DNA from: Folioceros fuciformis
Taxonomy: Eukaryota
Length of the DNA stretch: 64,000 nucleotides
Assembly (NCBI GenBank): GCA_049999805.1
Contig: JBNGIO010006303.1
Coordinates: 387,873 to 451,872 of the forward strand
Direction of reading: 5' to 3'
Below the pieces are notes generated by a model. The model saw only the letters and a list, made by a program, of their open reading frames with translations, searched no databases and was not told the DNA's origin. A program made the position numbers and the translations under genes. Positions 39,145 to 60,900 of the stretch are shown piece after piece (positions within the stretch are counted from its first letter, which is position 1; each line of letters starts with the position of its first letter).

Positions 39145-39550
39145 GGAATAATAAAAGACCTACCCTCCACTGGTGCCAAAGAAGCCCTTTGGAATACTAA
39201 TAAAAGGCCTACTTACCACTGGTGCCAAAGAAGCCCTTTGGAATAATAATACAAGGCATACTTACTACTAGTGCCAAAGAAGCCCCTTCACCTTTAAATT
39301 GCCTTGGCTAATGCTCTTTCACCTTTAAATTGCNNNNNNNNNNTTCACCTTTAAATTGCCTTGGCTAATGCTCTTTCACCTTTAAATTGCCTTGGCTAAT
39401 GCTCTTTGCAAAGCAAATGAATACGCCTTGTCAAAGGAAGGCCACCAATAAAAAAAGGGAGAGAGAACATCCCACACCACCAAGGAAAGAGAGAGAACAT
39501 CCAACACCACCAAGGAAAGAGAGAGAGCATCCCACACAGGAAAGGAAAGA
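39145..39550. repeat. Cluster of three adjacent minisatellites (~49 bp x3; 31 bp x>=3 spanning an N gap; 30 bp x3)
   Basis: ggaata..aaa...cta....cactggtgccaaagaagccc (39145-39286); ttcacctttaaattgccttggctaatgctct (39287, 39318, 39344, 39375); ggaaagagagagaacatcc.acaccaccaa (39457-39540). Confidence 0.88.
39334..39343. other. Assembly gap (10 N)
   Basis: Run of n inside the 31-bp tandem repeat. Confidence 1.
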
Positions 39551-42094: not shown

Positions 42095-44061
42095 TCATTG
42101 GTACTGCCCCGTCTTGCCTCGTACAAGCCGTTGCAAGTGCTGTACCCCTTCACGACGTAAGGTGGAGTATTCAACTCCAGCTTTGTGTGCAGCCATCACA
42201 CCGATGGCTTCTAAGTAGTTGTCCACCTTGACCTGTTTAGTGCAACACATGTGAGCGACGTCCAGATGAACCTTTTCTTACTTGCTCCATCAAAGATCTC
42301 TCACCGCATCCAAATCCAGCTTCTGTGGTGTATCATCAAGAACCGTTTCATTTTCGTCCACTGCTATAAGCAAAGGCTGTTACACATGTGAACGGGGGAC
42401 AAGGAGCGCATTCGTGTGGGACGTGAGGGTCTGATACCACGCGAGACAAACAAGGAAGAAGTGGCAGGTCAGGGTGCAGGGGAGTCGTACCTTCCGCACT
42501 CTTTGGCTACAAAAAGCTAGAGTTCCAGGACCTCCACATGCGTTTCCCGGAACAATCACACAGTCCACATCATCTGCCCAGATGCTCCTTCCACTGCTTC
42601 TTCCGGGGAGGAGGGCATCCTCCTTCCTTGAAAACTGGGGGGCTTTGCTCAACCCAGCCAGGACGCAGGGAAGAAACGTGTACCCTAGCTGCACCCAAAG
42701 GAGATAACATAACATGTGAACAGGCCCATTTGTTGGCTCCCCACAACTCTTCACCGAGACAAAAACACACACACACCTCTTCTGCCGCGGATCGAGGAGA
42801 GATGGAAGCATCCAATGGCAACGGGGACAGAGCGGGCGCATGGGCGCAAGGTATCCCGAATTCTTTCACAATCATGTGGCTGATGATCGCCTCAACCCCT
42901 GCCAAGGCATCAACACCCTGTGCGGTGCAACGGCAGAAAATGAAGTGAGCATGGTGCAGCTGCTGCTGAGTTAGCAAGAGTGTACAACGACACCGCACCA
43001 CCAACCTGGCCCTGCCTGTAATCCTCCAGTTCATCCAGTGAGTCATCAGGGAAGCGCGCCACCACTGCAACTGCATCGACTCCGCTACTCTTGATCAAGG
43101 AATCCACGGCTCGAAGAAGTGAATCAGGTCGTCCCAGGCGACCAGTTGACACTCCAGTCTTCCGGTCGACCCACTTCTCCACCTGCGCCGCTTTAGGTCA
43201 GGTATTCGCTTCGCCGGCAACCAGCAGCGCCAGAATGCAGCACATGCCCAACAGAGGGACACAGGCACACGGCGACAAAGCGAGGCACCTGCAATGGCTC
43301 GTCCGTAACAACGTACTCCAGAACGGTCAGACCCAAAGTGGCCCGCACAGCATCGGCAACCTGGAGGTGCCGCAGCCGCAGCTCCTCCTCTACACCCGCA
43401 TCCAGAACCAGGCCAACCTGCGATTCACGCAACAGAGACGCAACTGCTGGTCAGAAGGAGCGCAGGTAAGAGCTCTGGCAGCAGGGGATGACCACCACAT
43501 TCCCCTCCACTACCTATACCCACTCTGTTCTGATGCACAGGCACAAGACCCCATCCCCCTGCTGCAAACTGGTCCAGAGCGTAACCTTCCACGTAGAGAG
43601 CGTTGGGCAGCGGCCAATACAACATGGCTCCGTTCAGCACCTGCGCATACCATCCATCCATCCACACATGAGCCGGCAGCTCCTTGCGTCCAGTAACGCC
43701 CACAACAACTGACAGGACAAGAGGACGAGTAGATGAATCCCACATTGGGGTGGGTGATGAGGCAGTCGGCCACCGAGGCCATGGCTCGGGCAACCGGGAG
43801 CGCATCCCCCGCGTACCCACCGATGCTGGCTCCCGTGCCAGTGGGCACGATCAGAACAGCAGTGTAAGGCCTTCGGGCAATGCTGCCGCCCACAGCATAT
43901 GCCAAGACGGCACCTCGTCTGCCTGCTCCCCATTTCGTCACTCGCACGCCTAGGTGCAGGCGCTGCCTGGGCAGCGCGGGCCAGGGTCGAGGCCGGGGCC
44001 AGGCCGAAGCCCAGTCTCGGGACCAGAAGCAGGGAACGGCGGTTGCCACCATTTTGTCCAT
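42095..44061 (-). CDS. DUF3326-family plastid-targeted protein (cyanobacterial-type), multi-exon
   Basis: RRPYTAVLIVPTGTGASIGGYAGDALPVAR...ITHPN|VLNGAMLYW...YVEGYALDQF; GVDALAGVEAIISH; ISPRSAAEE|LGYTFLPCVLAGLSKAP; last exon VKVDNYLEAIGVMAAHKAGV...GQYQ* (stop 42095-42097). Confidence 0.88.
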
Positions 44062-45076
44062 TTCTGGCTCGAAGACTAGACTATCTAGCAACTGGACTCT
44101 CTTGTCCACATGGATAAGATCTGTAAATTGCAGGCGGTGACTCGAGGTGGGTAGAATTCCTGCAACCGCACCCTGTGTGAACAACCCCCGACAACCTACC
44201 CGGCAGCGGGAGCCGCAGCTGTAGTGACAGTGGCCGCCTGCGCTGGGCAGTGGAACGCACACATGTACAGATCTTTCCGTTTGGCAAGGGCAGTGTAAAA
44301 ACGGACAATGGGCGGACTGCGGTTAGGGCAACAACGCTAACCACCTCCACGCTCGGTGCATGCTCTCTGCAGCAGGGCCAGGCCTGCTTGTTGCTCCCCC
44401 CCAGTTTGGCGTAGGCGTAGGCGTAGGCCTTCCTTCTCTCCCGGACCAGTTGTGGCGTCCAGCCCCGCAGGCTCAATCACATCCTGCTTGAATTTGGCAT
44501 TTATCCATTTGTCCTTACCGGCTTTTACGGCATCCTGACCGGGATCGGCCCCTCTGCTGCCTTGGTATTTTCTAACACCCTCTGCTTCCCCGAGCTCTCA
44601 TTTTCGTGATTGGTTATCGTTTTCCTGCATGCTTTGAAGGTATCCATGCCCACGTCTTAATTCAATGAAGTTCTGTCCCAGCAATCGGTGTTGTGTGTGT
44701 GTTTTTGTGAGTGTCTAGGTGTGTGTCCAGTGAAGTAGTGGCTGTGAAATTTGGCATGACAACCCTGTTTATAGCACAATTGAGTTGGCTTCATTGTTAG
44801 TACCTGTCAGTAGGCCGAGCTAGTGCTATCGTCTTTATCAGAGCGTGGTGATCGTGACGTGACTCAGTATATCCCAAGGGTACATAACGTACTGCGGCGG
44901 AGATAATGGTCTGGTCGAGCAATGCCATCGTGATTGCACAGTAGGTGGGAGTTACTCATGTTTGGTAGTTACGAGGGAAGGCTTTTTGCTTGCCTCTTCA
45001 GCTTCTTTCACAACATGGTTTCCTGTGCTTTTCTCAACAGGCTGACCTGACCTGAGAGGCGCTCTCCAAGTCTTGT

Positions 45077-46743
45077 ATGGCTGGAAGGTCCAGGATGCCT
45101 CCCCCGCATATAATCAATCCTGGTGTCAGAGGTCCTCCTCCAGGCCCCGGCATTATGCGTCCTGGTCCAGGCGGTCCATATCAAGTTCGGCCGCAGATAG
45201 TTGCGCCTCAGCAAGTAATGGGTGGTGCTCCTCCTATCATCCTAGAGCAGAAGATCGCCACACAGAATGCTGAGATTCAAAGGCTGTTGACTGAAAACCA
45301 GCGGCTAGCGGCTACTCACGTGGCTCTCAGGCAAGAGCTTGCAGCTGCACAACAAGAGTTGCAGCGGTTGAACCAGATGTGGAAAGTACTCCAGAGTGAG
45401 ATGGAGCGACAAATAAGCACACTTGTTGATAAGAATAACAAACAGGAAGCGGAACTCAGATCCTCGGAGGCAATCAAGTCCGATGTAATGCAGCTGCGGG
45501 CTGACAACCAGAAGCTTCATGCCGTAAGAACAGAGCTTATGCAGCAGGTCCAGCAGGTCACAGCGGAACTACAGAGGCTACGCTCTGATGGTCAGCAAGT
45601 AGCAGCTCTCAGGACTGAGAATGAAGGGTTACGACAAGAACTGCAGAGAGCAAGGTACTACTAAGATATGCACATCCCTGTTGCCTTGTACCAGATTACG
45701 AGTTCATCTTGCAGCATCGTAATTGGGACTAATCCAGAAGCTCAGAAATTTGGATGGAACTTTTATGACATTGCTCCTGTGTTCACCTAGGACGGCATTG
45801 GACTATGAGAAGAAAGCAAACAGTGAACAACTAGAACAGAGACAAGCAATGGAGAAAAATCTGGTTTCAATGGCGAGAGAGGTTGAAAAGCTGCGTGCAG
45901 AATTAACAAATGCAGAGAAGAGAGCCCGTGTCAACACTACTACTGGTGACCCGACTGCAAGTTTGGTTCTTCTCTCTGCAGAATTGAGCATTGTTCTTAG
46001 CCTGTCTTACAGTTGGTCTCTCTCACAGCTGTTGGGACTTACAACGGGGGATATGCTGCTTCAGATATTACGTCCTATGGATCTGTACCTCAGGGAATTT
46101 ATGCTGATGGCTACGGCATCCACCAGGTTAGTTAGGCTTTTCCACCAAGTCTAGTAGCACTAGTGTAACTCTAGAGTTTGTAAGTTGGTGTCGTTTGGTC
46201 TCCATTTGGATTTATAAGCGACTGTCTTCTTAGTGCATGTGAAAGAGGTTATCCTTGCATCCCCCTTTCCCTCTTGTTTTCACTCTTGGCATGAAATTAG
46301 TCTTAGCCAACTACGGTCTTCTGGTCATACAACGTGGACACTTTTCAATTTTCTTTCACGTCCACAGTTGCCAGGAATTATACTGCTGCTTTTGAAGCTT
46401 GTCAAGCTTTTTGTGTAATCAACTCTGCTCTGAGTGATACATTTGTCTCTTCTTGGTGAAGTGATTTGAATGAGATTTTCGCCAACTTGAATCTCTTACA
46501 TCTATGTCAAATATTAACATAGGGCACAAGCAGTTCATTTGAGCTTCAACAAGCTCAAATGGTCTGGTTGTGAAGTTGTAGAAGGTTCTGTGTGGGATTG
46601 GATATGTTGATAGTATTTGTTGCACCTTTTGCTTTCAGATGCCAGTAGCGGTGGAAAACGGTGTGCAGTATTCCACTGGTCCAAATACTGCATGGGGAGC
46701 TTATGAGTTACAGCGCACTGGCATTCCTCATGTACGTAGATGA
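45077..46743 (+). CDS. FLX-like (FLL) coiled-coil protein, short isoform; exons 45077-45654, 45791-45945, 46029-46126, 46639-46743
   Basis: [41 protein letters not shown] and [18 protein letters not shown]...[32 protein letters not shown]. Gly/Tyr-rich exon, and a terminal exon AWGAYELQR...RR* typical of the FLX family. Confidence 0.88.
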
Positions 46744-49700
46744 GCCCAGGGATTGTTGTTAGGATACTGAGCAGCTGTGGTACAAGCTCCCATTTCCGAC
46801 AAAGTAGATGTTTTTGTGTATATTTTGACATACGGGATCTAGGCAATGGCAGGTTGCATAAGAACGTACATTGGTGAGGGAGTCTGCCATAGTTGAAGTT
46901 TTACCTCTTGGGTGCTCTAAGTTTCTGCTTGCATCGCTTTTGTTTTTGTGTGAGAGTCTTGTTACGTCTCTAGGACCCATTCAAGAGTTCTGTGGAGAGA
47001 GGAAGAGCCTAGGCATGATAGGTGTGAGGAAGCATCCTTCTCCTGCAGCTGTCGGTCTACATAGAATGTTATTCCAACTATGAGCATTGCTTCTGGTGAT
47101 TGAGAAGAAACTTGATGGCACTCTTGCTCCCATGACTTGTCTGTAATCACTAATCTTGTCTTCTCCCATGACTTGCTCCCAAACATGAGTATCCTGTGTG
47201 GTCGATTAAATATGGTCTGCTAGGATTGTCATTTTTTGTTTCTTTTGAGTCACAATGAAGCATGGGTTATGTATGTCGTCGAATGACTCGTGACTTCCAG
47301 TAGTGGAAAACTTTTGTGTCGCATGCTGATTGAAGACCGCACAGTATGAGTCTTTATCGGATGTTAAGCCATATGCTAGATATGTTTCAGTTCATGCTTA
47401 GTGTAGCCAAAAAAACTTGAGTGGAAGCAATCCATTAATTGTGCAATATACAGCAGATCGAGTATCCCTTGTCATTTGCTGTGAACATATGAAAATACCT
47501 CCCAAGACCCAGCTCACTCAGAAGGAGGTCTTGGTTGTGTGTTGTGGATATTTCATGAAATTTAAGCCTCTATAGCAGTGTATATACCTAACTACGTATA
47601 TGATATATTTATCTGCATACAGAATTTTGTTTCCTAGTATGTATGCATCTGTAGAGTCGTCACCTGTGCAGAGTCACGCTATTTAGTTCTGTCATGCTTA
47701 CTGTTGAGTACCTGCAACGAGGAACTTGCCAAAAATCGTGCAGAGAACTTGGAATTGTAACAAACAATTCATTTATACCACCTGTAGAGATAGCCTTGCA
47801 CTTGTATTCGTATTATGTTGTCTGTTTGTCATGGCACTCACACAGCAGGCAAACTCAAGAGCTATACTTCTTTAGGTTGGACACTTATAATATCAGTGCT
47901 TGTGTTTTTATCCTGGTTTGCTGTACTTGAAGCGCAGTAGCTGTAGCATTGTGTCCCAACTAGCAGAGTGATAGTGATGAACTTAGTGTAGATGCATCGA
48001 CTAGTTTGGGATCATGCCTGGTGAAATTAGCTACGAAATTTAAGGTCTCACTTGAATGTAAGCACAAGGCTGGATATAATTTTGCACAAGAAGGAAAACT
48101 GCTTTGGTAGCTGCTCAAGGACAAGATCAGGTCAGGGATGTTCCACCCTTACAAGAAAAAGAGACTTGCCATGGAAGACGAGTTGTGTGGTGCACTCCGG
48201 GCAGGTGGTGTGTTTTGCATATTTCTTGGGTACATAGTGATCTCTAATCCTGAAAGAACTTAATTTGAAGTCAAGTCTTAAGAATGCAAAATGGAGGATT
48301 ACTTGAGTCAGTATCAGTTTGTGCTTACTGTTTTGCATATGTGCCTGATTCTTGTCTGATTTCATGTCTTGACGTTTTCACCCAGGTGACCCACAGATCT
48401 GTTTCCATGTTGTTAAAGCTGTTAGAACTTGAAATCTGTCAGGTTTGCAATGTGACCCCACTTGTGTTGTGTTTGAAGTGTTCTCTCAGCCTTCTCTCAC
48501 AAAGAGAAATAGACCGTTATTTTTTCTCCGAAGTGCTGGAAATGGAAACTGTCATGTGCTGTCCTGCAGTGATTGTTGGATGTTGGGTAGATCAGAGTGC
48601 CTGCCCAGATTGGACATTGTTCCTCCAGTATGGAGGAACGTGACTTTAACGTTTTACTTCCAGTACGAGTAGCATCGTTGTACCACCGAATAGCATGCGG
48701 AGACAGTGCACGTCTGTTGTTATTGTGTCGTGTTGTTTCACGCTTTGTGCGTTTTAGATGAGGGTATGGTCTACAGCTCACAAGATGTGTGTGTAACAGT
48801 CTGTGTGTATGTTGTATGAGTTTTTGATAAAGTAGGTCATTTTTGTCAACTGTCAGGTTCATGTACGGAGGTTGGTGGTCGTAGTACATGTCCTATGTTA
48901 ACTTTTTGGGAAAGCTTCGTTCAAGTTTAAGCACCAAAGTCTGAGGTGTCACATGTTCACAGTCTTGTGGATTGGCGTGTCGCGACATATTGTTGAAGCA
49001 ATTGACCGATGAGATCTGCTGATGGGTGAACCGTCACATGTTTGCTGAAAGCGCTTACAAAGTTTGTGCATTGTACATGGCGCTGGGACTGCTAGATTTG
49101 TTGATTGAAGAACCTTTTTGTAGTCTTGTTTCCTGTTGCGTGGTTCCCTTTCTTGCATGCAATTGATCAGTACAATACTTAGTGCATTGAATTTGAAAAA
49201 GATAATTGGAAAGGATTCCTTTAGGAGATTCTCCTATTTGGATGACCAAATAACCACATCAAGGTGAATGGTAATGAGGGACCAACTTTGTATTACCTTG
49301 TAGATTCAGTGGAAGCTTCGGATGATGCTCACAGGTTCCCCACTTCATTTTTACTACCATGTCCCTGTATTACCATGGTTCTCGTTGCTCCACTGCAGTG
49401 GAAGAGACCGTGTGCATTGCATTATGACACTTCTTCCGGCTCATGGAGCTTTCTAATTTGCCACGCATCCGTTGCTTTGGTGGAGCAATTTGGAGGTTCC
49501 TCCATCAAAGTAGCACGTCAACTTGTATATGTGTAGTCTGCTCTCTTGACAATGGAGATTCCAAATAGCCATTAGTCCAGTGTATGGCCAAGTAGTTAAG
49601 TTACGACAGCTTGGATTGAATGCTTGCTTTGAACTGATCTACAGTCAAAATATGTGAACCTGAGTCTAGGGCTTCCTTGCTCAAGTCTTGTCTGTTGTGT

Positions 49701-49802
49701 TATCTGACTCGTATTTTGATGCGCAAGGATTTGAATATTAGGGTATCTGCGTTGGCAGGCCTTTTCTAATTCAAATGCATTCTTTATTCTGTGTATTTGC
49801 AG

Positions 49803-52514
49803 GAACCGCCTACAATGGCAAATGGCCAGGGCTCAGGTGATAGTGACTACAAGGGTGGAACAGAAACTTCGAAGTACCCTGGGCAAGATAATCACTTTCA
49901 AGCACCAATTGCAGCTTCTCAAGATCAGTTTAGGCCTGCACTGGCAGAAAGCAAACCTGCTGAGGAGTGGACTGTCCATGAGGCTCCCAATGGCAGGCCT
50001 TTCTATTACAATCCAGCTACAGGAGCTACTCAGTGGGATAAGCCCGCTGCTTTGATTGCAGCAGAAGCAGCACAACATTTCAACCAGGCGCAGATGCATC
50101 ACCCTTCACAGTCACAGTCTGGTCCGGTGCATCTGCAGTCGTCAGGGCCAACTCAAATGCAGCAGTCAATTCCAGGTCAAGGGTTGCATGGTCAAAGTGG
50201 CACAAGCCAGCTGCCGCAAGCTGTTTCTGTCCAAGTGAAACAGGAAAACCTGTCTCCTCAAGTTCACCTTACACAGCCTGCCCAAAGCCCAGCGCAACAG
50301 TCGGTGAAGGGGCAGATGCAGCCTCTCCAAGGACAATTGCAGCAGCCAGGGGCACAAATGCAGCAATCTGCACCTTGTCCCCTGCCACATACCATGCAAG
50401 GTTCTCTAATGCCCCGCCCTTTACCTCTTCCATTGCCTCGTCCTGGTCAACTCCACGGGTTGGCCCCAATTCCGCACGCGATGCAGCATCCCTCTAGAGG
50501 TCCTTTGCCTCAGCCAGTGTCGCAGCCACATTTGATTCCCAGACCAGTTCAGCCGAACCCAGTTGGGGGCCCTCCTGTCCAAACACATCCTATGACGCAA
50601 ACCCCACACATGGCTTCTCAAGGTTCTGCACCTTTGTTGGCGGCTCCCCCCCACACACTACAACAGCCACCACATGGGCCGCATGGTATATGGCAGCACA
50701 TTTTCTTGTTCTGAAATTCCTGAATGCATACTGTCCATTTGTGTTTGTTGCTCAGCTCACTTCCTTTTTGATGTCCTCAGTGTCTGCACCTCCTATAATT
50801 CATCAAAGACCTCCTGTGCACACACCCCCTCCATCAAAGCCTCCAGCCCCTGTCTCAACCTCTGCGCCTACAAGTGGCCCTCAAGGTACACTTCGAAGTA
50901 GACGTGGTTTTCTGCTGCACTGGTAGGAAAATGTGTTGACCAGTATTTGATCTGCAGGTGCAAATTTGTTTGTGTTTGGTATTCCTGAAGATATGGGTGA
51001 TCAGAAACTCAAAGATTTGTTCGCTCCCTACGGCACTGTTTTGTATGCAAAAGTGGGAGTTGAGAAAGAGACAGGGCGAGGGAAAGGCTATGGTAAGCAA
51101 TGTCTGCTTTTGTCTTGGTAGTGCCAGTTACAGTCGTATTCTTCAATGATGTGCGTATCCATAGTCAGCCCGGACATATTTTACGAGGAAAGCAATTTCA
51201 AGTCTTAACCGTGAGGGCCAATCTAAGTAACTCTCCCTTCTCACAGTTTTGCCTTCCCTTTCTCTATCTCAGAGAGAGGTCTTTCGTTACTGGTGATGGT
51301 GCTTGCGATATTGGTAGTTTGCAGGTGAAATTGGTGCCAGCTTCCTGGATTGATTTTGTTATGTCCTTTCCGGAATGATGGATGTTACCCGAGATCTGTC
51401 TTACAAACCAGTACTGTGTCCTGTCTTTTTAACACCAGTGAGTGAAGCTCCGTATGGCTAGTTGTCACTGCTTTTAGATTCTGGGTAGGACTTCAACCTA
51501 TTGCAAATTCATGTTGGGTTGTCCACAAATTCTATCGTGAAAATGCCATAGCAAGTGTTTCATATCTCCAGCTCCATGATCGTCTGCTTGGGTAGCAGCC
51601 GTGAAACCCTTGCAGCAAGGGGTTGTGTCAGATGGGAATAGCCCATTCGTACTGGGAATCAGCTGGTTCTCATTGTAATATAGCCCATTGACAAGTTCAC
51701 CAGTATTTGTTTAACCCAGGGTCTTGGTATTTTGTTACTGCATGGGCCCATAATGCAAGACATGGACCCTATGTAGTAGTAGTTTTAAAGTACGACACAA
51801 GAGGAGCACCGTGATTCATCTTCTGTAACTTTGTGCCGTGTTGTCTTCAGTCATATCTTGCATTTGTTTGTCGAAATCATTGCAGTTGTGTAGTGAGATA
51901 TTCTTTAAGCTTGTTTTGCACCTTAGAATGCTACTTCATGGCGGGTAGACGTTACTTTGTGTTGACTTGTTATTCCGTGTATGCTGTTAGCTGTATCTCA
52001 GTATGCTCAGGAAGATGTCAGGGGTCATGGCTTGAATGATTTGTAGTTTTGTAATCACTCTGTTCGTGTAACATTGTGCGCTTGAATTAATCTTGACCAG
52101 ATTCCTGTGATGCATGGTATGTATCATGGGGACTGTCCAGATTATCCGCCTGTAGTCTGTGCTTTGGTGAGCAGTAAGACGTGTTTGAGTCTTTCTTTGG
52201 GTGATTGGTGTTCTCTCTGTCCTTTTTGCTCTTAAAATCCTAGCCTGTTTGGTCACTGCATTTGATGATCTTAAGCAGGTTTTGTATCAATGGATTCTTC
52301 TAAAGCTGCTGAGGCAGCCATCCAGCAAGTCAATGGTATGTCCCTTTCGGGCAAGCGTATCAAGGTGGAATTGAAGAGGGGAGAACATGAGCCTCATCAA
52401 CAGCAGTCTCATCAACAGCCTCATCAACAGCAGCCTACACAGCAGAATCTTTCAGGGGGTGTTGGCCCTACTAGATGGCATCACAGTGACAGTAGAGTGT
52501 ATCGGCCTTACTAG
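49803..52514 (+). CDS. WW domain + Q/P-rich low-complexity region + C-terminal CELF/Bruno-type RRM; exons 49803-50685, 50781-50885, 50958-51092, 52279-52514 (5' end uncertain)
   Basis: WW: WTVHEAPNGRPFYYNPATGATQWDKP. RRM: GPQ|GANLFVFGIPEDMGDQKLKDLFAPYGTVLYAKVGVEKETGRGKGY|GFVSMDSSKAAEAAIQQVNGMSLSGKRIKVELKR...YRPY*. All junctions are GT-AG and in phase. Confidence 0.85.
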
Positions 52515-54944
52515 TTGTTGTAAGGCTCATGTATCCCCATATTCAAATCCCTATCTAGTCAGTGAGACCGTGGAACCCAGGTTACACTGTAGGCACCTGA
52601 TGTAGGGAGTTGCACCTGCTTACAAGGATTGTCTTGTTTGGAACCTTAGTGCCCACCTCGACTGGTATAGTCTGCTGTAGGCAATGAATCAGTGATCACA
52701 GTAATAGGGTAGATTGCAGGTCATATAGGGCAAGTCTCAGAACTAGAACCTTATCTCCCCTCCCTCTAATCCCTCCAGTATAGACGGAAAGGATTCTCTT
52801 CTTTTATTTGTATGTAGCCAGTCCTTTTACTTGCGTGGGATTTTGGTCCTTGGCTGACAGTCCTCATAGGTGCAAAATTAAGAGTCTGGTCGTTAGATCA
52901 GTGTACATATTACAGAGAGTAGCATTGTGGGAGCTGCTGATGCCTCGTTTAAACTTGTTTAGGGTCTCCAACTTGATCTGCGTGTAGGCTGATTTTGGTT
53001 GAATTATGTTCCGGTAGTTTTCACATCTCAGTCCTTCAGCTCCTTTGTTGATATCCTTCATCACGGTGCTTTTGCAAAAATCATGTCTTACTGGCTATCA
53101 AACTACAATGTGCTAACCGCTGGAAGATTTTTGTCCGAACTCCTAGGATACAGCTGGAGGATGAAACAGTTGTTAGGGTGTGTTGTCACAGGGATTCCTG
53201 AGACCAGGTGTATGGTTGCACCTCACTGTAGTTGGCCGTGCCCTTGTTTTGTGGACTTCTTTTGCTATTCCAGCAGTACTTAAAGAAGTTGGCTCACACT
53301 GTCCAGTTATCGGAGTTAGTATATGCAGCACTGCCACTTTGTTGTTCCTCTGTCTCAACATCCGTAGTTTTTGACAGGACCTGATTTGAGGCTGAAATGT
53401 AATGCAGCCTGTTGGAATTATATTTTGGTTTCAAACTCATGGATGATACAACATTAGTGTGTTTGGTAACTGCTTTGTACTTTACCTAAGCTTGGACGAA
53501 GTTTGTGAAGATAACTCATTGTGAGGTGCGTCCTCAGAGCGATGGTGTTTCGTGAGATTGTCTCATTTTAAGGTTCTTTTACCGCATTTGATACTAGATC
53601 TTGAGTATGTGAGAAGTGTGTACGTGGGCTCTGAGGAAGGTAAGCATATATCACGTCCAATTTTGGGGGTTGGCTGCTTTTATTTAGGGGAGGTTGGTTC
53701 TTGACAATTTGGTTGCTACCAGCTTCATAAAACTCACCGCATGGTGTTTTAAGAACGTATGGGTGCAACACAGTTTTCTGCCAAATTGGATGAGCAATAG
53801 CCTGTCAACATGTTTGCCCTGAAGCGTTTTCAGATTTCTCATGAGGTTCGGGTCCTAGGAGTCTTGAATTGTGGAGATGTATCCCTCATGTTGTAGTTCC
53901 ATTAGGGTTTAGGGTGTTCACCCGGTGATACATTGGCTTGGAATTGCTACTGATTTATTGAATTGTAATTGTTACTATTGAGTTTTGTTCCAGAGGTCCT
54001 TCAGGCCGTTCACCCTTTCTAATATAGCGCCTCTACTGTTTACAGAGTTGTGGTGGACCTTGTCCCTGATCATTCCAAGATGGGAAACTTGCCAGGTGCG
54101 CCTGTAATGTTGGCAGATTGATGTCAACGTATGACACTCTGACGCTCGGAGCGGCCATTGTTCCTAACCTGGCCAACCCTCTAAAAGTCAGGTGCAGGCT
54201 TGATTTTCATGTATAGCTGGAAAGTGATTCAGTTTTTCTTTTCTGAAGGTGTTGCAGTGGCTTTTCTATGGAACTTCTTCCCTAAAAACTTGCCGAAATG
54301 CCCGTGAGCAATTGGATTTTTTCATGTGGAAGCAATCTTGTTGCAGCCCTGATATGTTGGAATGCTGCTGCTGCTTGTGCAGGAACTAAAGCAATTAGGT
54401 GTTGTGGGTTTCGTTTCGGCCTGGACGGAGCGACGTGGAGTTTCAATGTCGGTGCCTGAACGGCAATTACCTTTTCATCGTCTGGCGCGCTTTTCAGTCG
54501 TCAAAATCTGACCACGTACATGTTGTTGGTTCAGGAAGTCTCCAAAGGACACAAACTGACGTCAAGCACCGACAGGACTAAGAGGAGAACTCTTTGAAGT
54601 TGGGGGTTTGTACGCTCAGGAAAGCAAGCAAGCGTCCATGGATGATTGAAGTCGGATTTCATCTCAAAAATGTACATGGCAACCTTGCGGGAAAGTGAAC
54701 AATTGTCGGACAGGCTTTGCCCCATGAATTGATCCACGTCGCATAATATTGCTATAAGAGCTGCTGTGAACCAATGTCAAATGCAAGCCGACTTTTGCAT
54801 GCCAGCGTTAGGCAGAAGGAAGCTGTTGCTGTAACAGAGCCGAGGTCGCAGCACACTAGCTGCTATGGAAAAAATAAAGCTAGGAGAACTATTGACAAAA
54901 TGTAATTTACAAAAGGAAATTTCCTTCCACAGCAGCCCTCGCTG

Positions 54945-57900
54945 TTACCTCGTTCTTAAGAATCCCCGCACATCAGACAAAAATAAGTACAAATTTTCCC
55001 TGAACCTGCGTCTATTCGCCCGATCCAAAGATGCCGTCACCTGATTCGAGTTTAACAGAACGTGAAATGCCGTGGCCAACCGGCTTTGAAGCACGGCATT
55101 CTGTTGCCCCTCTAGAAGTTCTTGAGCGAATCTCTACACCGTAGATAGAAAGCATCAGTACTAAGGATGGGCAAACGAGCCTTTGTGTACAAACTGACAG
55201 TCCAATTTTCACCTGGTAAAGAGCAGTATTGCACAAAATCAAGGGAAGAAGCGCATCCGCGGCAGGCTCCACCAACTCATTACTATCAGACATAAGAACA
55301 TCTTGGTCCGTCAGTACCGTCCAGCGCTTGGTTCTGGAATAAACCTCTGAAACAGCACACTGACCTGTAGTCCTCGAAGAGCAGGTATTGCAGCACTGCC
55401 CTAAGGAAATGGGCAAGAACGCCCTCCTCCACAGCGCCATCCGCTCCCTGCTTGTTGACAGCATGCAAACCAAGGCCCTCTTTCCCTGCACAGATCTCTT
55501 GATAGTGGTAGAAAGCTACGGCGTTGAGCGCTGTTAATGACATGTTCACAACTTCGACATCCTGTCGACAAAAAACCATGAGAGCGTTCATCCTGTAACA
55601 AGAACAAAGTACACACCTTTCCAACAGTGAAATACCTGATGCCTTAGGCCAAACTCCAGAGTAGCAACAATTCGAGAGAATCCTTCTACCGATAACTTCG
55701 CAACCTTTTGTGGATATACTTCCAGCATGTGTGCAATTAGTGTAAAATACTGCAACCACAGCAAACAAACGATCTCAAACACTTTTCCTAGTGAATGTGT
55801 TCATGTATCATATATGCATTCACAAAGACTATCTGCACCAACCTGGCGGCAAAGTTTTGGGTACTTAAGCAAGTCTACGGATAGCAGTGGAGTAACGATG
55901 TGCAAACCAAGGTAGACTACCTGAAGAACAGACCCCACAAGCTTAATTCATACGAAAGTATCCAAGAGCTTATCACTTTTTCCCCGCACAAAACAACTGC
56001 ACGTCTCGAGACACACACCTGTGCAACATCGGAATTTTCATCCTCCCCACTGTCAGAAGCAAAATCAACCTGTCATGACACAAAACCCAAACAACATCCC
56101 ATCATGACTGTTGGAAACGGATTTAAGAAACAACACTACAGTAAACCAGCGTGACTGTATATCGAACAGTAGAACTACCAAATCCTTTGAGCTCAAATTT
56201 GTAAGAAGCTGCAGCAGAGCCCTCAGGTCTTTGTACTTCTCTTTCTGGCTCTCGCTCAACAAATTCACTGACGGGGAGACTGAAACCTTTTGACAAACGA
56301 ATTTTCAAACCGCATTTCCAGAGTTCAGTGTCAAGACTGGTAGAGAATGTAGCCTCAATTGGGTTGATACCACATCCCAGCCATGCAACGTCACTAATTG
56401 CAATGCCCGATTAAAACTTGCATGCCTTCACATCCTCCTTTTTTCTATAATGTTTAAACGACGTACCTTCCCAATATTGTGGACAGAGTAGACCTCAAGA
56501 AGGCGAACACAAAAGCTGAACAGAATGGCCATTTCCTTGGGCTCCAAAAACGCTACTTGCCCATCAACCCAATCCACTACATATTTTAGAAGCAAATAGA
56601 CTACAGATGACTGCCAAGAAAAATTTTAAGTCAGCACCACTGCATTACAAAAAGCTAAAAGGTTTCAGGAAACTCTGATCAGCAACACCCTGACCTGGTT
56701 CTTGTACGTTTGCAGCAACACAAGCAAAGGCTCCATAACCGCAGCTCCCATCTCAAAAATGGCTTTCTGGCTGCGAGGAAGGGTTGCCCTTGCAGCCCCC
56801 CGAAGCATTTCCATTAAACAACTCACCTGCAAGATAGACGGGACAACACTCGTTGGGTACAGGTTTGTGTGTGAACAAAGTGGTAGACCATGACAGGTTA
56901 AGGGCCTTCAGGAGGTACAGGTTAAGGGCCTTCAGGAACAAACCATTACCTGGTGAATAGAATCTGGTTGCTGAGAGCAGCTTCGCAAGTCTTCTCTTTT
57001 GGACAAATCTGCAATCCTTACAGCGATGGGTCCAAGTAGATCTCTGACATATCTAAAAAATCAACACCCAAAATTCAACAGCTTGAACGTGAAATTGAAG
57101 ACGACCAGTTTAAGAACAGATATTCCTAGTAAGACTAAGTACTCACTGATTGGTTGCATCCACTGTACTCATGCCAGCTGCTGACCGGCACAAAACCTCT
57201 GAAAGTGCTCTCTGTCCACGTTCAACATGCGACAGCGTTTTACAATAGGAACACAACGATGTCCCAAAGTAGATGACATCGAAGATCAACCAGTAGTAAA
57301 AATCATGAACCTGGGTTGCAGCTGCAAGTCCTGGAAGCGCAGGCTGCTGATAAGCGAAGGCGTGTGCAAGCTCTTGCCACGCATCCTAGAAAGAATGAAC
57401 ATTATAGGAGAACTCCACCGTGTAGCTAAAACTGAGAAGACCTCACGGACATGTACCCTTCACATCTCAGTACGTTATATAGCGCTTACCATAGTAACCA
57501 GATGGACACATATATTGCGGCGCTGAGCCAAATGAGGCAGTAACTGAAAGGCAGCAATCTCCTGCACTCAACAAGAGCCGCTTGATGTTATGACTAATTA
57601 TACGTTCAAATGTTTCTATTGTCATCTGCCTGACTTCATGAAGTGACATCTGCAACAGGTGAACACCTGAAAACAGAAAAAATGAAAACAAATTCCTGAC
57701 CTGCAAATTTCTTTCGCCTGGCCATGCAGTTAACGCAGTGAGTGTAACACGAACAAGGACCTCAAGCACAGCCTTTCCTCCACCCTGTTCTCCGAAAGCA
57801 ATATTAAGGGCATTCCTTCCGTCAAATTGAGCACTGGATGCAACAATCAGGTGTTGATCACCCTCATGCCCAGAAGGCGTGGAATTTGGGCCCCTGCCTG

Positions 57901-60900
57901 CATGTGCTGGCATGAGATATGTGTCAACCCATCTCCCAAAGAACCATATGAGAGCCTGCAGAAAATGAACCACAGTGGTGAAAATCCAATTCTACCAACT
58001 CCGATTCATGTTTTTCCCTGCTCATATCCACATTGCCTAGGAGGCAGACGTCAAATTTGTGGGGGAGTGGTGCTGACCTCCATTAGACGAGGACTGAAAA
58101 CTTGAGCTCGTACATTTGCATCCAGGCTCTGGCGAGCTAGTTCAATCACAGAGCTGAGAACCACCAATTGGACAGAATGTTAGATTATGCTAGTAGTGGA
58201 AGAGAGCCAGCAAGAGACCTTGTCACTTACTGGGAAAGAAGTATGGCAGGGTGCGTCGTTGGATCATCCCCACTTGCGTAAAGAGCCGAGATTGATTCAG
58301 GAACCTGCAAGGTTGTCACCAATCAGGCATGGCATTGGCCTAGGAAGAATAACATTGCACGAAAGTTCAGGTTTCAGAATCACTCTACTCACAAAAGGCG
58401 TCTCTCCGTCGCCAGCATCCGCTAGCACATGACCAGACATCAGTAACAGCCAGTGGAGCTCCTCCAGTATTGATACAGGATCCGCCATTCCTCCAACGCA
58501 CTGAAGAGATCAACCACTATCACAATCAATTCCCCTAGATTCATATAGATATGTTCCAGCCCGACAAGAGTGAGTACCTGAAGCAGCCAAGAGCATCGTT
58601 CTGAGATAAGCATAGCCAACAGGGGTACTGTTGCAGCGGGAGCAGCTCGGGCAACTAGAGCAATGGTGCTAAGTCTTTCATCCCGTGCTGCAGACAGAGC
58701 CCATAAACTTTCCTCAGTGCGCATGATGGCTCGCTAAATCGTGCAGCCTAGCTAGTTGTGATTGTGAAACCAATAGCCAGATAAATGTGCAAATGTACTG
58801 TCGAACATTACCAGCTATAACAGCATGCAATTGTTCATTCTCGTCATCTTCTTCATGCACAGAGGCAACAGCCACTGCATGTGCCACATGAGCTTATGTT
58901 GTCAATCTTCTTAAACGGAACAGACAACAAAGAAACAAAAATGCACTTACACCAAAGCCTGGGCGACTCAATTGGGACATACCTCTCAGTTCTGTCTCCA
59001 CGTATGTTCGAAAAACTGCTGCTGCTGCTTCTATTCCAGTAGCAGGGAAAGGGTTTCTTCTACTCAGATCTACAGGCTGACAGAAACACGCCCAATAAAA
59101 CACAGACATGCTATGAATAGGCTTGTTCAGCTTAGAAAATTTCTCACAGACTATGACCTTGGTCAGCCACGTTTCACCTACTTGCAAAAGGACAGTCCAA
59201 GTATCCAACAAAATATCAAGGGCTTCTTTAGACCAAGTCTCCTCTTTATCTCTCTCGCCAGTTGCTTTGATCACTTCACATGTTAATGCAGCTAGGAAGC
59301 TCAGCGTTCCTACAGGCCTGTGTGTGGTGTCAGTCAGAACTAACTACGAACTGCTGCAGAACAGAACTACATCTGCTAAATACGGACCTTGCAACTGGCT
59401 TCAAGTGCTGATCAAATGCTGAGGGAGAATTCAAACTTGCTACGGCCAGAAGAGCCCGGCACCCATCTAAAAGCTCACTGCAGGTAACTCGGATGGATCA
59501 GGCATAAAGGGAGTAGAAATCTTCCGTGGCAGGAATGAAATTTCTTTCCACCGGGCAGCTGTGACCAAAAGAGGACAGAATCTTACCTCTCACTAATGCC
59601 ACTTTTCAGAGCCTTGATTACAGACTCTGGGGGATCAAACCAGGAAGTTATCCCAACAAGCATTCGCTGCAAATGTAGCTCTTGAGTTACACCTCCTTCT
59701 GGAATAACAGCCGAACCAGGTACCCATCAGCTGGTCTACGAGTGTAAATACTTACCTCTTCCATCTTCTCACGTGTAAGAATAACAACACAGGTGGATGT
59801 GCACAATTCACAAGTTACGCACCAGATCCAAAAATATTGCCACTCAATGCACACAACTGCACAATCACTTGCCGAGCAGAAACAGCGAGAGGGGAATCTA
59901 TCCACGAAGTTTCCCCCCATTGACCTTGTCTTATCCGTGCATACAGCTCCAAAATCCAACGAACTCTATTTGGCGAAAGCAATATATCCTGCCAACTTAG
60001 TCCTGGCTGAGACAAAGAAGAAAAAATTTCACAGAAAAATACCCACAACGGTCAGAAGTGGATGCCCCAGGAACATCGAGAATGATGCAAGTCAAGAGAT
60101 GCGCTCGGAAATGAATCACGCTATTAAGAGGTAAATACGATCTACGTTCCCAAGCCAAGGATCTTGTGAGGGTGGACTATAATCGCAGATAGAGTTGATC
60201 CAAAAGTAGGTGAAAACGGAAAAGGCTTACCTGGACTGAAAATCCATGATCCCCAAGACGCCTTCCAGGACTATCCCGGCCAATTGATGATGTAAAGGCA
60301 CTTGCTCTATTCTTTCCTACAACAATGACACCCCCAGCCCCTCGGACTAGGGCTCCCTGAAACTCCCAGTTCAAAATTTGGGACATGAGATGAAGAGCTG
60401 CAGCACAGACAGTGACATCCATTGCACTTCCCGAGCCATGAATTGTTTTGTCTGCTGCTGTCACAGCAGCATCTTGCGCCCAGGTGTAGAATTGCTGGTA
60501 GCAACAAAGTTCTAAGTGTCAGCCAGAGCAGCAAGTGGATAGACAAAAACTCTGCACTCAGCGTTACTTTAACACTGAGAAGTGAACCCAACATTCCGAC
60601 TCAACACCTGGAGATAGTCGAGCTCCAAGGATGCTCGACAATGCTCATGAAATTCAGCTGGAAGCCCCATCGCACTCGCAGTAGTAGGTGAAAACTCTGA
60701 GACCTGATATGGATTGAGTCAAGGCCATGAGAATATTTCTCCAGAACATACCGAGGACAGGCAAGTTAAGGACACCAATAGCATTACCCTATCAGAATCA
60801 TCCAACAGACAGATGGCCAGACCTACCAGAGACTCAAGGAGTGCAATTCCTGACCGCTGCGCTGGAGCACCATGGGCACCAAGGACAGCCTGCCTAACCT

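Follow-up and report, generated by a model that had tools for sequence, protein, structure and literature searches.

Gene organization of the locus

We analysed a stretch of 64,000 nucleotides (nt) from Folioceros fuciformis (GenBank assembly GCA_049999805.1, contig JBNGIO010006303.1, positions 387,873 to 451,872 of the forward strand), hereafter the window, and focused on the region 45077-52514. This region very probably constitutes a single gene whose main mRNA encodes 729 amino acids, with an FLX-like coiled coil, a WW domain, a proline/glutamine-rich (P/Q-rich) region and an RNA recognition motif (RRM), and which is an orthologue in an uncharacterised family extending from Chara to ferns; the fates of a composite exon within the gene and a scaffold function of the long protein are what we infer beyond that. 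The features of the gene are as follows, with slashes marking exon boundaries and X1 denoting the one public sequencing run that provided transcript data.

44000-44564, plus strand: non-coding 5′ exon; donor TTG/GTATTT at 44564, joint 44563/4^45040/1 (GT..AG)
45041-45654, plus strand: start-codon exon (ATG 45077), coding for a Pro-rich N-terminus and the beginning of the FLX-like coiled coil, 192 amino acids (P0001)
45791-45945, plus strand: FLX-like coiled-coil exon 2; joints 45654^45791 and 45945^46029; 44-71% identity to homologues
46029-46126, plus strand: FLX-like exon 3, Gly/Tyr-rich, with a phase-0 end at CAG/GTTAGT
46639-46743, plus strand: composite exon, consisting of a 31-codon cassette (46639-46731), then V-R-R and TGA 46741-46743; no cover in X1
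46744-49802, plus strand: remainder, after the short composite exon, of the 3,676-nt intron 46127-49802; spanned by the joint 46126^49803
49803-50685, plus strand: linker, then the WW domain at about 49962-50045 and the greater part of the P/Q-rich low-complexity region; contains ATG 49815
50781-50885, plus strand: Pro-rich linker exon; joints 50685^50781 and 50885^50958
50958-51092, plus strand: N-terminal half of the RRM (RNP2 side); PF00076, E 1.6e-8, profile 1-41
52279-52514, plus strand: C-terminal half of the RRM, His/Gln-rich tail and conserved end G-P-T-R-W ... R-P-Y; stop 52512-52514; joint 51092^52279 (shorter side 27 nt)
52515-54073, plus strand: 3′ untranslated region (UTR) with an optional intron, 53526-54045; X1 contig 52278-53525; the transcript reaches at least 54073

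The frame was reconstructed from ATG 45077, upstream of which the spliced leader contains an in-frame stop, and all 729 codons are open when the exons are joined by script. The splice sites proposed in an earlier sequence-only reading of this DNA are confirmed with exact coordinates: exon 3 closes in phase 0 at ...CAC CAG/GTTAGT (46126), a frame of 34 codons, closed by TGA 46741-46743, follows the acceptor TTGCTTTCAG/ATG at 46639, and one of 295 codons follows the acceptor GTATTTGCAG/GAA at 49803. The distal half was modelled from sequence as 49803/49815-50685, 50781-50885, 50958-51092 and 52279-52514. The exon 2 donor used in the transcript is 45945, not the alternative at 45960. Position 44000 is not the start of the 5′ exon, since an X1 contig extends 314 nt upstream of it.

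Transcript evidence for a single long mRNA

The transcript data consist of the assembled contigs of X1, the record of which is not marked as RNA and the library kind of which was guessed. The contigs were placed on 44000-54000. All eight are at least 99% alike to the window and all seven of their joints are GT..AG, for which reason we read the library as cDNA. One contig of 2,869 nt runs unbranched and without a single mismatch from the 5′ exon to 51092, joining 46126 straight to 49803. The shorter side of this joint measures 96 nt and its ambiguous letters number only four, which argues against a repeat-driven misassembly. Thus, the FLX-like and the WW, P/Q-rich and RRM exons share one mRNA with a 729-residue product, as the sequence-only reading had proposed for this locus, and linkage of the two halves extends to relatives (see below). 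By itself, the phase match between 46126 and 49803 has a one-in-three chance of occurring; the fusion goes beyond such a coincidence because the contig carries the joint and collinear full-length homologues exist.

The stretch 46744-49802 (3,059 nt), from behind the short exon to the 49803 acceptor, has T and G fractions of 0.335 and 0.236, versus 0.184 for C, similar to the introns proven by transcript joints. No long frame was seen in the long intron besides the short exon, with frames judged by inspection and not by a Pfam scan. The previous description of this stretch as U/G-rich and intron-like therefore holds. A search of 43500-55000 against Rfam returned no matches.

Domain organization of the encoded protein

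The WW domain (Pfam PF00397, E 4e-10) occupies residues 54-81 of the frame of exon 49803-50685; in the 729-residue protein it was placed at residues 333-355. Its nearest relatives are the WW domains of TCERG1, PRPF40A and yeast Prp40 (E 2e-12 to 4e-9), factors that couple transcription to splicing. Between the WW domain and the RRM lies a segment of 253 residues, including exon 50781-50885, which is composed of 21% proline and 17% glutamine and contains P-L-P-type runs. The protein has a single RRM (PF00076), located C-terminally to the WW domain and beginning at residue 609 of 729. It is divided between two exons, 50958-51092 (E 1.6e-8) and 52279-52514 (profile 43-70, E 1.1e-3), the second half scoring 19.3 bits against the Pfam cut-off of 20.7 and thus being sub-threshold by itself. 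Among single-RRM chains, the RRM of the orthologue P0007 is nearest to CELF1 (2cpz, E 1.3e-19) and CELF2 (2my7, 5m8i), chains which we take to represent the third RRM of CELF. The WW domain, the Q/P-rich region and the RRM that had been read from the distal exons are all recovered. We liken the conserved ...R-P-Y C-terminus to a PY-type nuclear import signal. At the other end of the protein, exon 1 yielded only weak coiled-coil matches in Pfam, which has no FLX model.

A conserved family from Chara to ferns

Homologues with the same composition of modules were recovered from both halves of the gene. A phmmer search with exon 1 matched 351 proteins at E<=1e-3; among the best 150 of these, nine also match the WW exon, and six of the nine match both RRM halves. 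The fused chains include those of Chara braunii (GBG78372.1), Selaginella (XP_002974282.1, labelled in the database as 'CUGBP Elav-like family member 1'), Ceratopteris (KAH7279964.1) and Diphasiastrum (KAJ7527838.1/KAJ7555778.1), as well as transcripts of Pteridium and Psilotum. When the WW exon was searched against proteins of at least 518 residues, five of 7,659 candidates matched, among them Adiantum GOP47_0016919, and all five carry PF00076 and PF00397 together with an FLX-like N-terminus. A near-length search with the same exon gave three matches among 3,175 candidates: P0008, a gene call within one open frame that starts in the WW exon; P0009, from Nothoceros; and P0010, a fused form with a short N-terminus. 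A region search with P0007, the closest full-length relative, added P0184, P0185 and P0186, whereas a search of the ESM Atlas with P0185 gave no usable match. For the distal half, the closest relative with a name is the hornwort Nothoceros (56-61% identity, rising to 86% in the RRM exon), which by itself makes a hornwort origin of the window probable. Moreover, P0011 and P0008 each list a single 22,886-nt contig, which suggests that both halves reside on one Logan contig in a relative.

The similarity extends from end to end. The 760-residue form of the window protein, which includes the cassette described below, aligns over residues 55-760 to residues 4-734 of P0185 (E 4e-155), over 1-760 to 1-703 of P0007 (E 5e-134) and over 1-753 to 1-657 of the Psilotum protein (E 2e-102), arguing for a conserved gene architecture rather than a chimera. 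An FLX coiled coil, a WW domain and a C-terminal RRM are thus found in one full-length collinear chain in P0185, P0007 and P0037. The fused homologues have the same module order and the same G-P-x-R-W ... P-Y end, which is present in the window, Chara, Psilotum, P0007, P0184 and P0185 and takes the form G-P-M-R ... W-P-Y in ferns. They also share the ...S-H/ exon boundary. Differences concern length, which varies from 468 to 955 residues owing to low-complexity parts, and module content: unlike the window, two Diphasiastrum paralogues are devoid of the RRM and the fern proteins of the cassette. None of the fused homologues has a described function.

The sequence-only reading did not recognise this architecture and had suggested looking for it in bryophyte, fern and streptophyte-algal proteomes, where single chains with all three parts do occur, from Chara to ferns; they were already present in public databases as hypothetical proteins. 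Named seed-plant matches to exon 1, such as 'FLX-like 2' and Taxus 'FLX-like 1', match neither the WW nor the RRM exons among the 150 best hits. More generally, the fusion was not found in seed plants among these 150 matches or in word-seeded, length-windowed searches of up to 8,000 candidates, which is a failure to find it and not a proof of absence. No account of an FLX-WW fusion was found in the literature, supplements and most subscription journals being outside the scope of the search; a paper in which FLOWERING LOCUS C EXPRESSOR and a WW domain occur together concerns rice FCA. Overall, the FLX-WW-RRM architecture is real, conserved and undescribed.

Relationship to FLX-like, FCA and CELF proteins

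The N-terminal coiled coil resembles named FLX-like proteins, as the 351 matches indicate. Over the N-terminal 190 residues, identity to FLX-like 2 proteins of Iris, Macadamia and Coffea amounts to 49-51% (E 1e-38 to 2e-36), and the short exon supplies the W-G-x-Y-D/E ... H-V-R-R-stop tail typical of the family. FLX-like proteins, however, are coiled coils of ~250-470 residues without any other domain, whereas the window mRNA encodes 729 residues including WW and RRM domains; the size and domain content of a plain FLX-like protein would be matched solely by a putative 311-residue isoform (see below). In a FastTree phylogeny of 254 coiled-coil columns from 138 rows, most of them without a taxon name, all 15 fused rows group with a 50-row seed-plant clade that holds the rows named FLL1/FLL2 (SH-like support 93, unstarred, in an unrooted tree). 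Left out were 44 rows: the two pieces of the window, proteins that were partial or had WW only, redundant isoforms and sequences shorter than 180 residues. The fused rows form a grade, and the grouping is weakly consistent with a loss of the distal exons in seed plants.

FCA comprises two RRMs followed by a WW domain within prion-like sequence, and CELF/Bruno-like proteins have three RRMs, two of them N-terminal and one C-terminal. The window protein contains the same kinds of modules as FCA (RRM, WW and a Q/P-rich disordered region), and its putative setting, condensates of 3′-end processing with an FLX-like coiled coil, would also be FCA-like. In this respect the proposal that the distal half brings in the modules of the FCA partner stands. 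Equivalence with FCA is not supported: by domain order the window protein differs, having one RRM after the WW domain, its WW domain is TCERG1/PRPF40-like and the RRM of its orthologue P0007 is CELF-like. With one RRM instead of three, it is not a CELF/Bruno-like protein either.

A composite exon with three possible fates

The short exon 46639-46743 had been regarded as an alternative last exon. It contains, in addition, an internal 5′ splice site, CAT/GTACGT at 46731/46732, located 9 nt before the TGA, which is the hallmark of a composite terminal exon. Neither this donor nor the resulting cassette role was part of the sequence-only reading. The exon 46639-46731 is a phase-0 cassette of 93 nt (31 codons), and its inclusion gives a protein of 760 residues. 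Read-through past the donor at 46731 adds V-R-R and a stop, giving 311 residues. Accordingly, the exon would have three fates: it may be skipped, yielding 729 residues (the form seen), spliced at 46731, yielding 760, or read through and polyadenylated, yielding 311. Only the skipped form is present in X1, while the cassette form is seen in orthologues. Namely, a cassette segment with a W-G-A-Y-D/E motif lies between the coiled coil and the WW domain in P0007, P0086 and P0184; in P0007 and P0086 it ends with ...S-H followed by E/D-P, the corresponding residues of the window being ...I-P-H, then E-P from 49803.

The read-through end of the exon resembles that of FLX-like proteins. It encodes A-W-G-A-Y-E ... 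P-H-V-R-R-stop, that is, an FLX-like C-terminal motif and a basic tail. Its last five residues, P-H-V-R-R, are identical to those of Taxus 'FLX-like 1' (P0024), and Welwitschia P0032 ends with A-H-V-R-R-stop. The W-G-x-Y-D/E motif was found in 14 of the 182 proteins scanned; 12 of the 14 are unfused FLX-like proteins, and in ten of these 12 the motif is at most 10 residues from the end. The Diphasiastrum gene O6H91_16G073900 has annotated isoforms of 515 residues with the cassette, 489 without it and 312 with read-through after ...S-H. A short isoform of 311 residues is therefore probably produced from the window gene as well, because the codons behind the donor, together with the stop, copy the terminus of the family and the cassette alone needs none of them. 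The case for an alternative last exon is thus one of homology, through this tail and the Diphasiastrum isoform. A switch between the short and long forms by the choice of polyadenylation site may be envisaged.

Canonical FLX-like proteins (P0024, P0032, P0028) end with H-V-x-x-stop, so that a GTN valine codon occupies the position of the 5′ splice site of the fused genes (46729-46743 in the window). In seed-plant FLX genes this codon may be a relic of such a splice site.

Comparable arrangements are known from the secreted/membrane switch of immunoglobulin mu and from intron-3 polyadenylation of FCA, in both of which a 5′ splice site competes with a poly(A) site. The window likewise has a 5′ splice site just upstream of a stop, deciding between a short and a longer protein. 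Unlike in these two systems, the exon is also skipped entirely, and use of the proximal end is predicted rather than observed. If there is a proximal poly(A) site, it would fall within the first few hundred bases of 46744-49802.

Weighing the alternatives

Several points weigh against the interpretation as a whole. X1 is a single, contig-only run not recorded as RNA, which weakens the case. Its contigs neither cover the short exon nor contain a 46126^46639 or 46731^49803 joint; of the two junctions that the sequence-only reading had pitted against each other, 46126^49803 is thus present and 46126^46639 absent. The gap in X1 cover spans 46338-49677 and is no proof against use of the short exon; contigs also lose rare forms, and neither transcript ends nor strand can be read from them. 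No AATAAA follows the TGA at 46743, and the weak hexamers AAGAAA (47105), ATTAAA (47205) and AATGAA (47254) lie 360-510 nt downstream. An X1 contig runs through the neighbouring divergent DUF3326 gene (see below), a reminder that unstranded contigs can fuse adjacent transcripts; unlike 46126^49803, however, that merge passes through contiguous genomic sequence without a GT..AG joint. Two Nothoceros transcript open reading frames (ORFs), P0009 and P0165, comprise the WW-RRM part only. Finally, the function of the long protein is proposed entirely from its domains.

Could the locus make long proteins only, with exon 46639-46743 being an optional cassette or an evolutionary relic, and neither a short protein nor proximal polyadenylation? 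The assembled form, which skips the exon and offers no joint into it, is what such a locus would leave behind, and so is the lack of AATAAA within ~360 nt after the TGA. In P0007, P0086 and P0184 the exon serves solely as a cassette, and the fern proteins and P0185 do without it. The three codons behind the donor and the stop nevertheless reproduce the family end, identically in Taxus P0024 and as A-H-V-R-R in Welwitschia P0032, and the Diphasiastrum orthologue is annotated with a 312-residue read-through isoform at the same boundary. Moreover, plant poly(A) signals are degenerate according to PMC12167784, so that the paucity of hexamers after 46743 is not decisive. We therefore regard a cassette without a short product as possible but somewhat unlikely.

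The remaining alternatives concern the start of the distal half. ATG 49815, in good context and 12 nt past the acceptor, could initiate a WW-RRM gene independent of an FLX-like gene ending at 46743, with 46126^49803 being a minor read-through chimera; it could also be served, in addition to the fused mRNA, by an internal promoter in the long intron, giving a WW-P/Q-RRM protein of 448 residues. The frame from 49815 is indeed complete (448 codons), the Nothoceros ORFs P0009 and P0165, labelled complete, begin within the WW exon, and so does the single-exon call P0008. Yet P0008 is confined to one open frame, and P0009 and P0165 read into a retained intron, which marks them as immature or partial transcripts; since a stop lies 33 nt upstream of the 49803 acceptor, retention of the intron would produce the same 'complete' ORF. 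No X1 contig covers the 125 nt directly upstream of 49803, a stretch bridged by the contig joint, and the short exon is equally bare; the only path assembled across both regions joins them and has no branch between the 5′ exon and 51092. At least seven named genera have chains that unite the two halves and are collinear with the window product, which makes two independent genes extremely improbable. The GC content is flat across the long intron, at 0.40-0.44, versus 0.58-0.62 where the locus truly begins, and an additional internal promoter is accordingly judged quite improbable. A single gene with a fused main mRNA thus remains our preferred explanation.

Additional splice forms and neighbouring features

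Further variation is seen at the 3′ end of the gene. The optional 3′-UTR intron 53526-54045 (GAG/GTGCGT ... TTTACAG/AGT), ~1 kb past the stop, occurs spliced and unspliced in X1, where loose letters behind 53525 match 54046-54073. At such a distance from the stop, the intron, once spliced, could expose the mRNA to nonsense-mediated decay. Behind 51092 the loose end carries the same letters as behind 53525, indicating an alternative junction, 51092^54046, that skips the last RRM exon; translation of this form stops 20 codons into the 54046 exon and gives 671 residues without the second RRM half. The intron that splits the RRM, 51093-52278, is retained in a separate X1 contig (51065-52307), with an equivalent read-in by Nothoceros P0009 and P0165. 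Its retention may be a conserved regulated event.

The gene is flanked upstream by a divergently oriented neighbour:

42910-44052, minus strand: divergent DUF3326 gene (Pfam PF11805), three exons, E 8e-21, 3e-16 and 1e-15

The X1 contig of the FLX-WW-RRM gene crosses the first exon of the DUF3326 gene and a spacer of ~500 nt into the 5′ exon. This corresponds either to overlapping head-to-head transcripts or to an unstranded assembly merge, and, because the contig runs on through the DUF3326 exon, X1 does not fix the true transcription start. Downstream, at 54500-59300, the AT skew changes sign and many frames open on the minus strand, which suggests a convergent multi-exon gene with its 3′ end nearing the 3′ UTR of the gene studied here. 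The window also contains an assembly gap of 10 N at 39334-39343.

Implications for the FLX/FLL family

In Arabidopsis, FLL2 is known only as a coiled-coil helper of condensation of FCA and the polyadenylation machinery, and its link to RNA is unclear. PMC12167784 reports that the coiled-coil protein FLL2 co-localises with FCA, interacts with CPSF73 and promotes the liquid-liquid phase separation on which polyadenylation at particular sites depends. By its domains, the long protein of the window would be a multivalent nuclear scaffold that takes part in co-transcriptional RNA processing (splicing or the formation of 3′ ends), with oligomerisation through the coiled coil, contacts to proline motifs through the WW domain, weak additional contacts through the disordered region and RNA binding through the RRM. 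Its putative short counterpart would match FLL1/FLL2 of seed plants, in which only the scaffold part is kept.

As a "Rosetta-stone" link, the fusion ties the coiled coil to WW, prion-like and RRM modules in the gene that, from Chara to ferns, stands nearest to FLL1/FLL2; this conserved family has only "hypothetical" or, misleadingly, "CELF1" as database labels. The fusion predicts that the coiled coil and the WW/prion-like/RRM part act as one scaffold, that the short form is the ancestral counterpart of the seed-plant FLL proteins, and that the choice between isoforms is a splice-versus-polyadenylation decision. A more speculative scenario, which we consider unlikely as it stands, is that FLL1/FLL2 in the streptophyte ancestor had two outputs, with a 5′ splice site within the last four codons, at the GTN valine codon of the H-V-R-R end, choosing between a coiled-coil-only protein and a coiled-coil/WW/prion-like/RRM scaffold, and that seed plants kept the short output, with the other modules now acting in trans, for example in FCA. 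In this scenario the protein, which probably acts in 3′-end choice, could regulate the ratio of its own isoforms. If this were true, the FLL2-FCA condensate of Arabidopsis would be a split version of an ancestral one-protein system.

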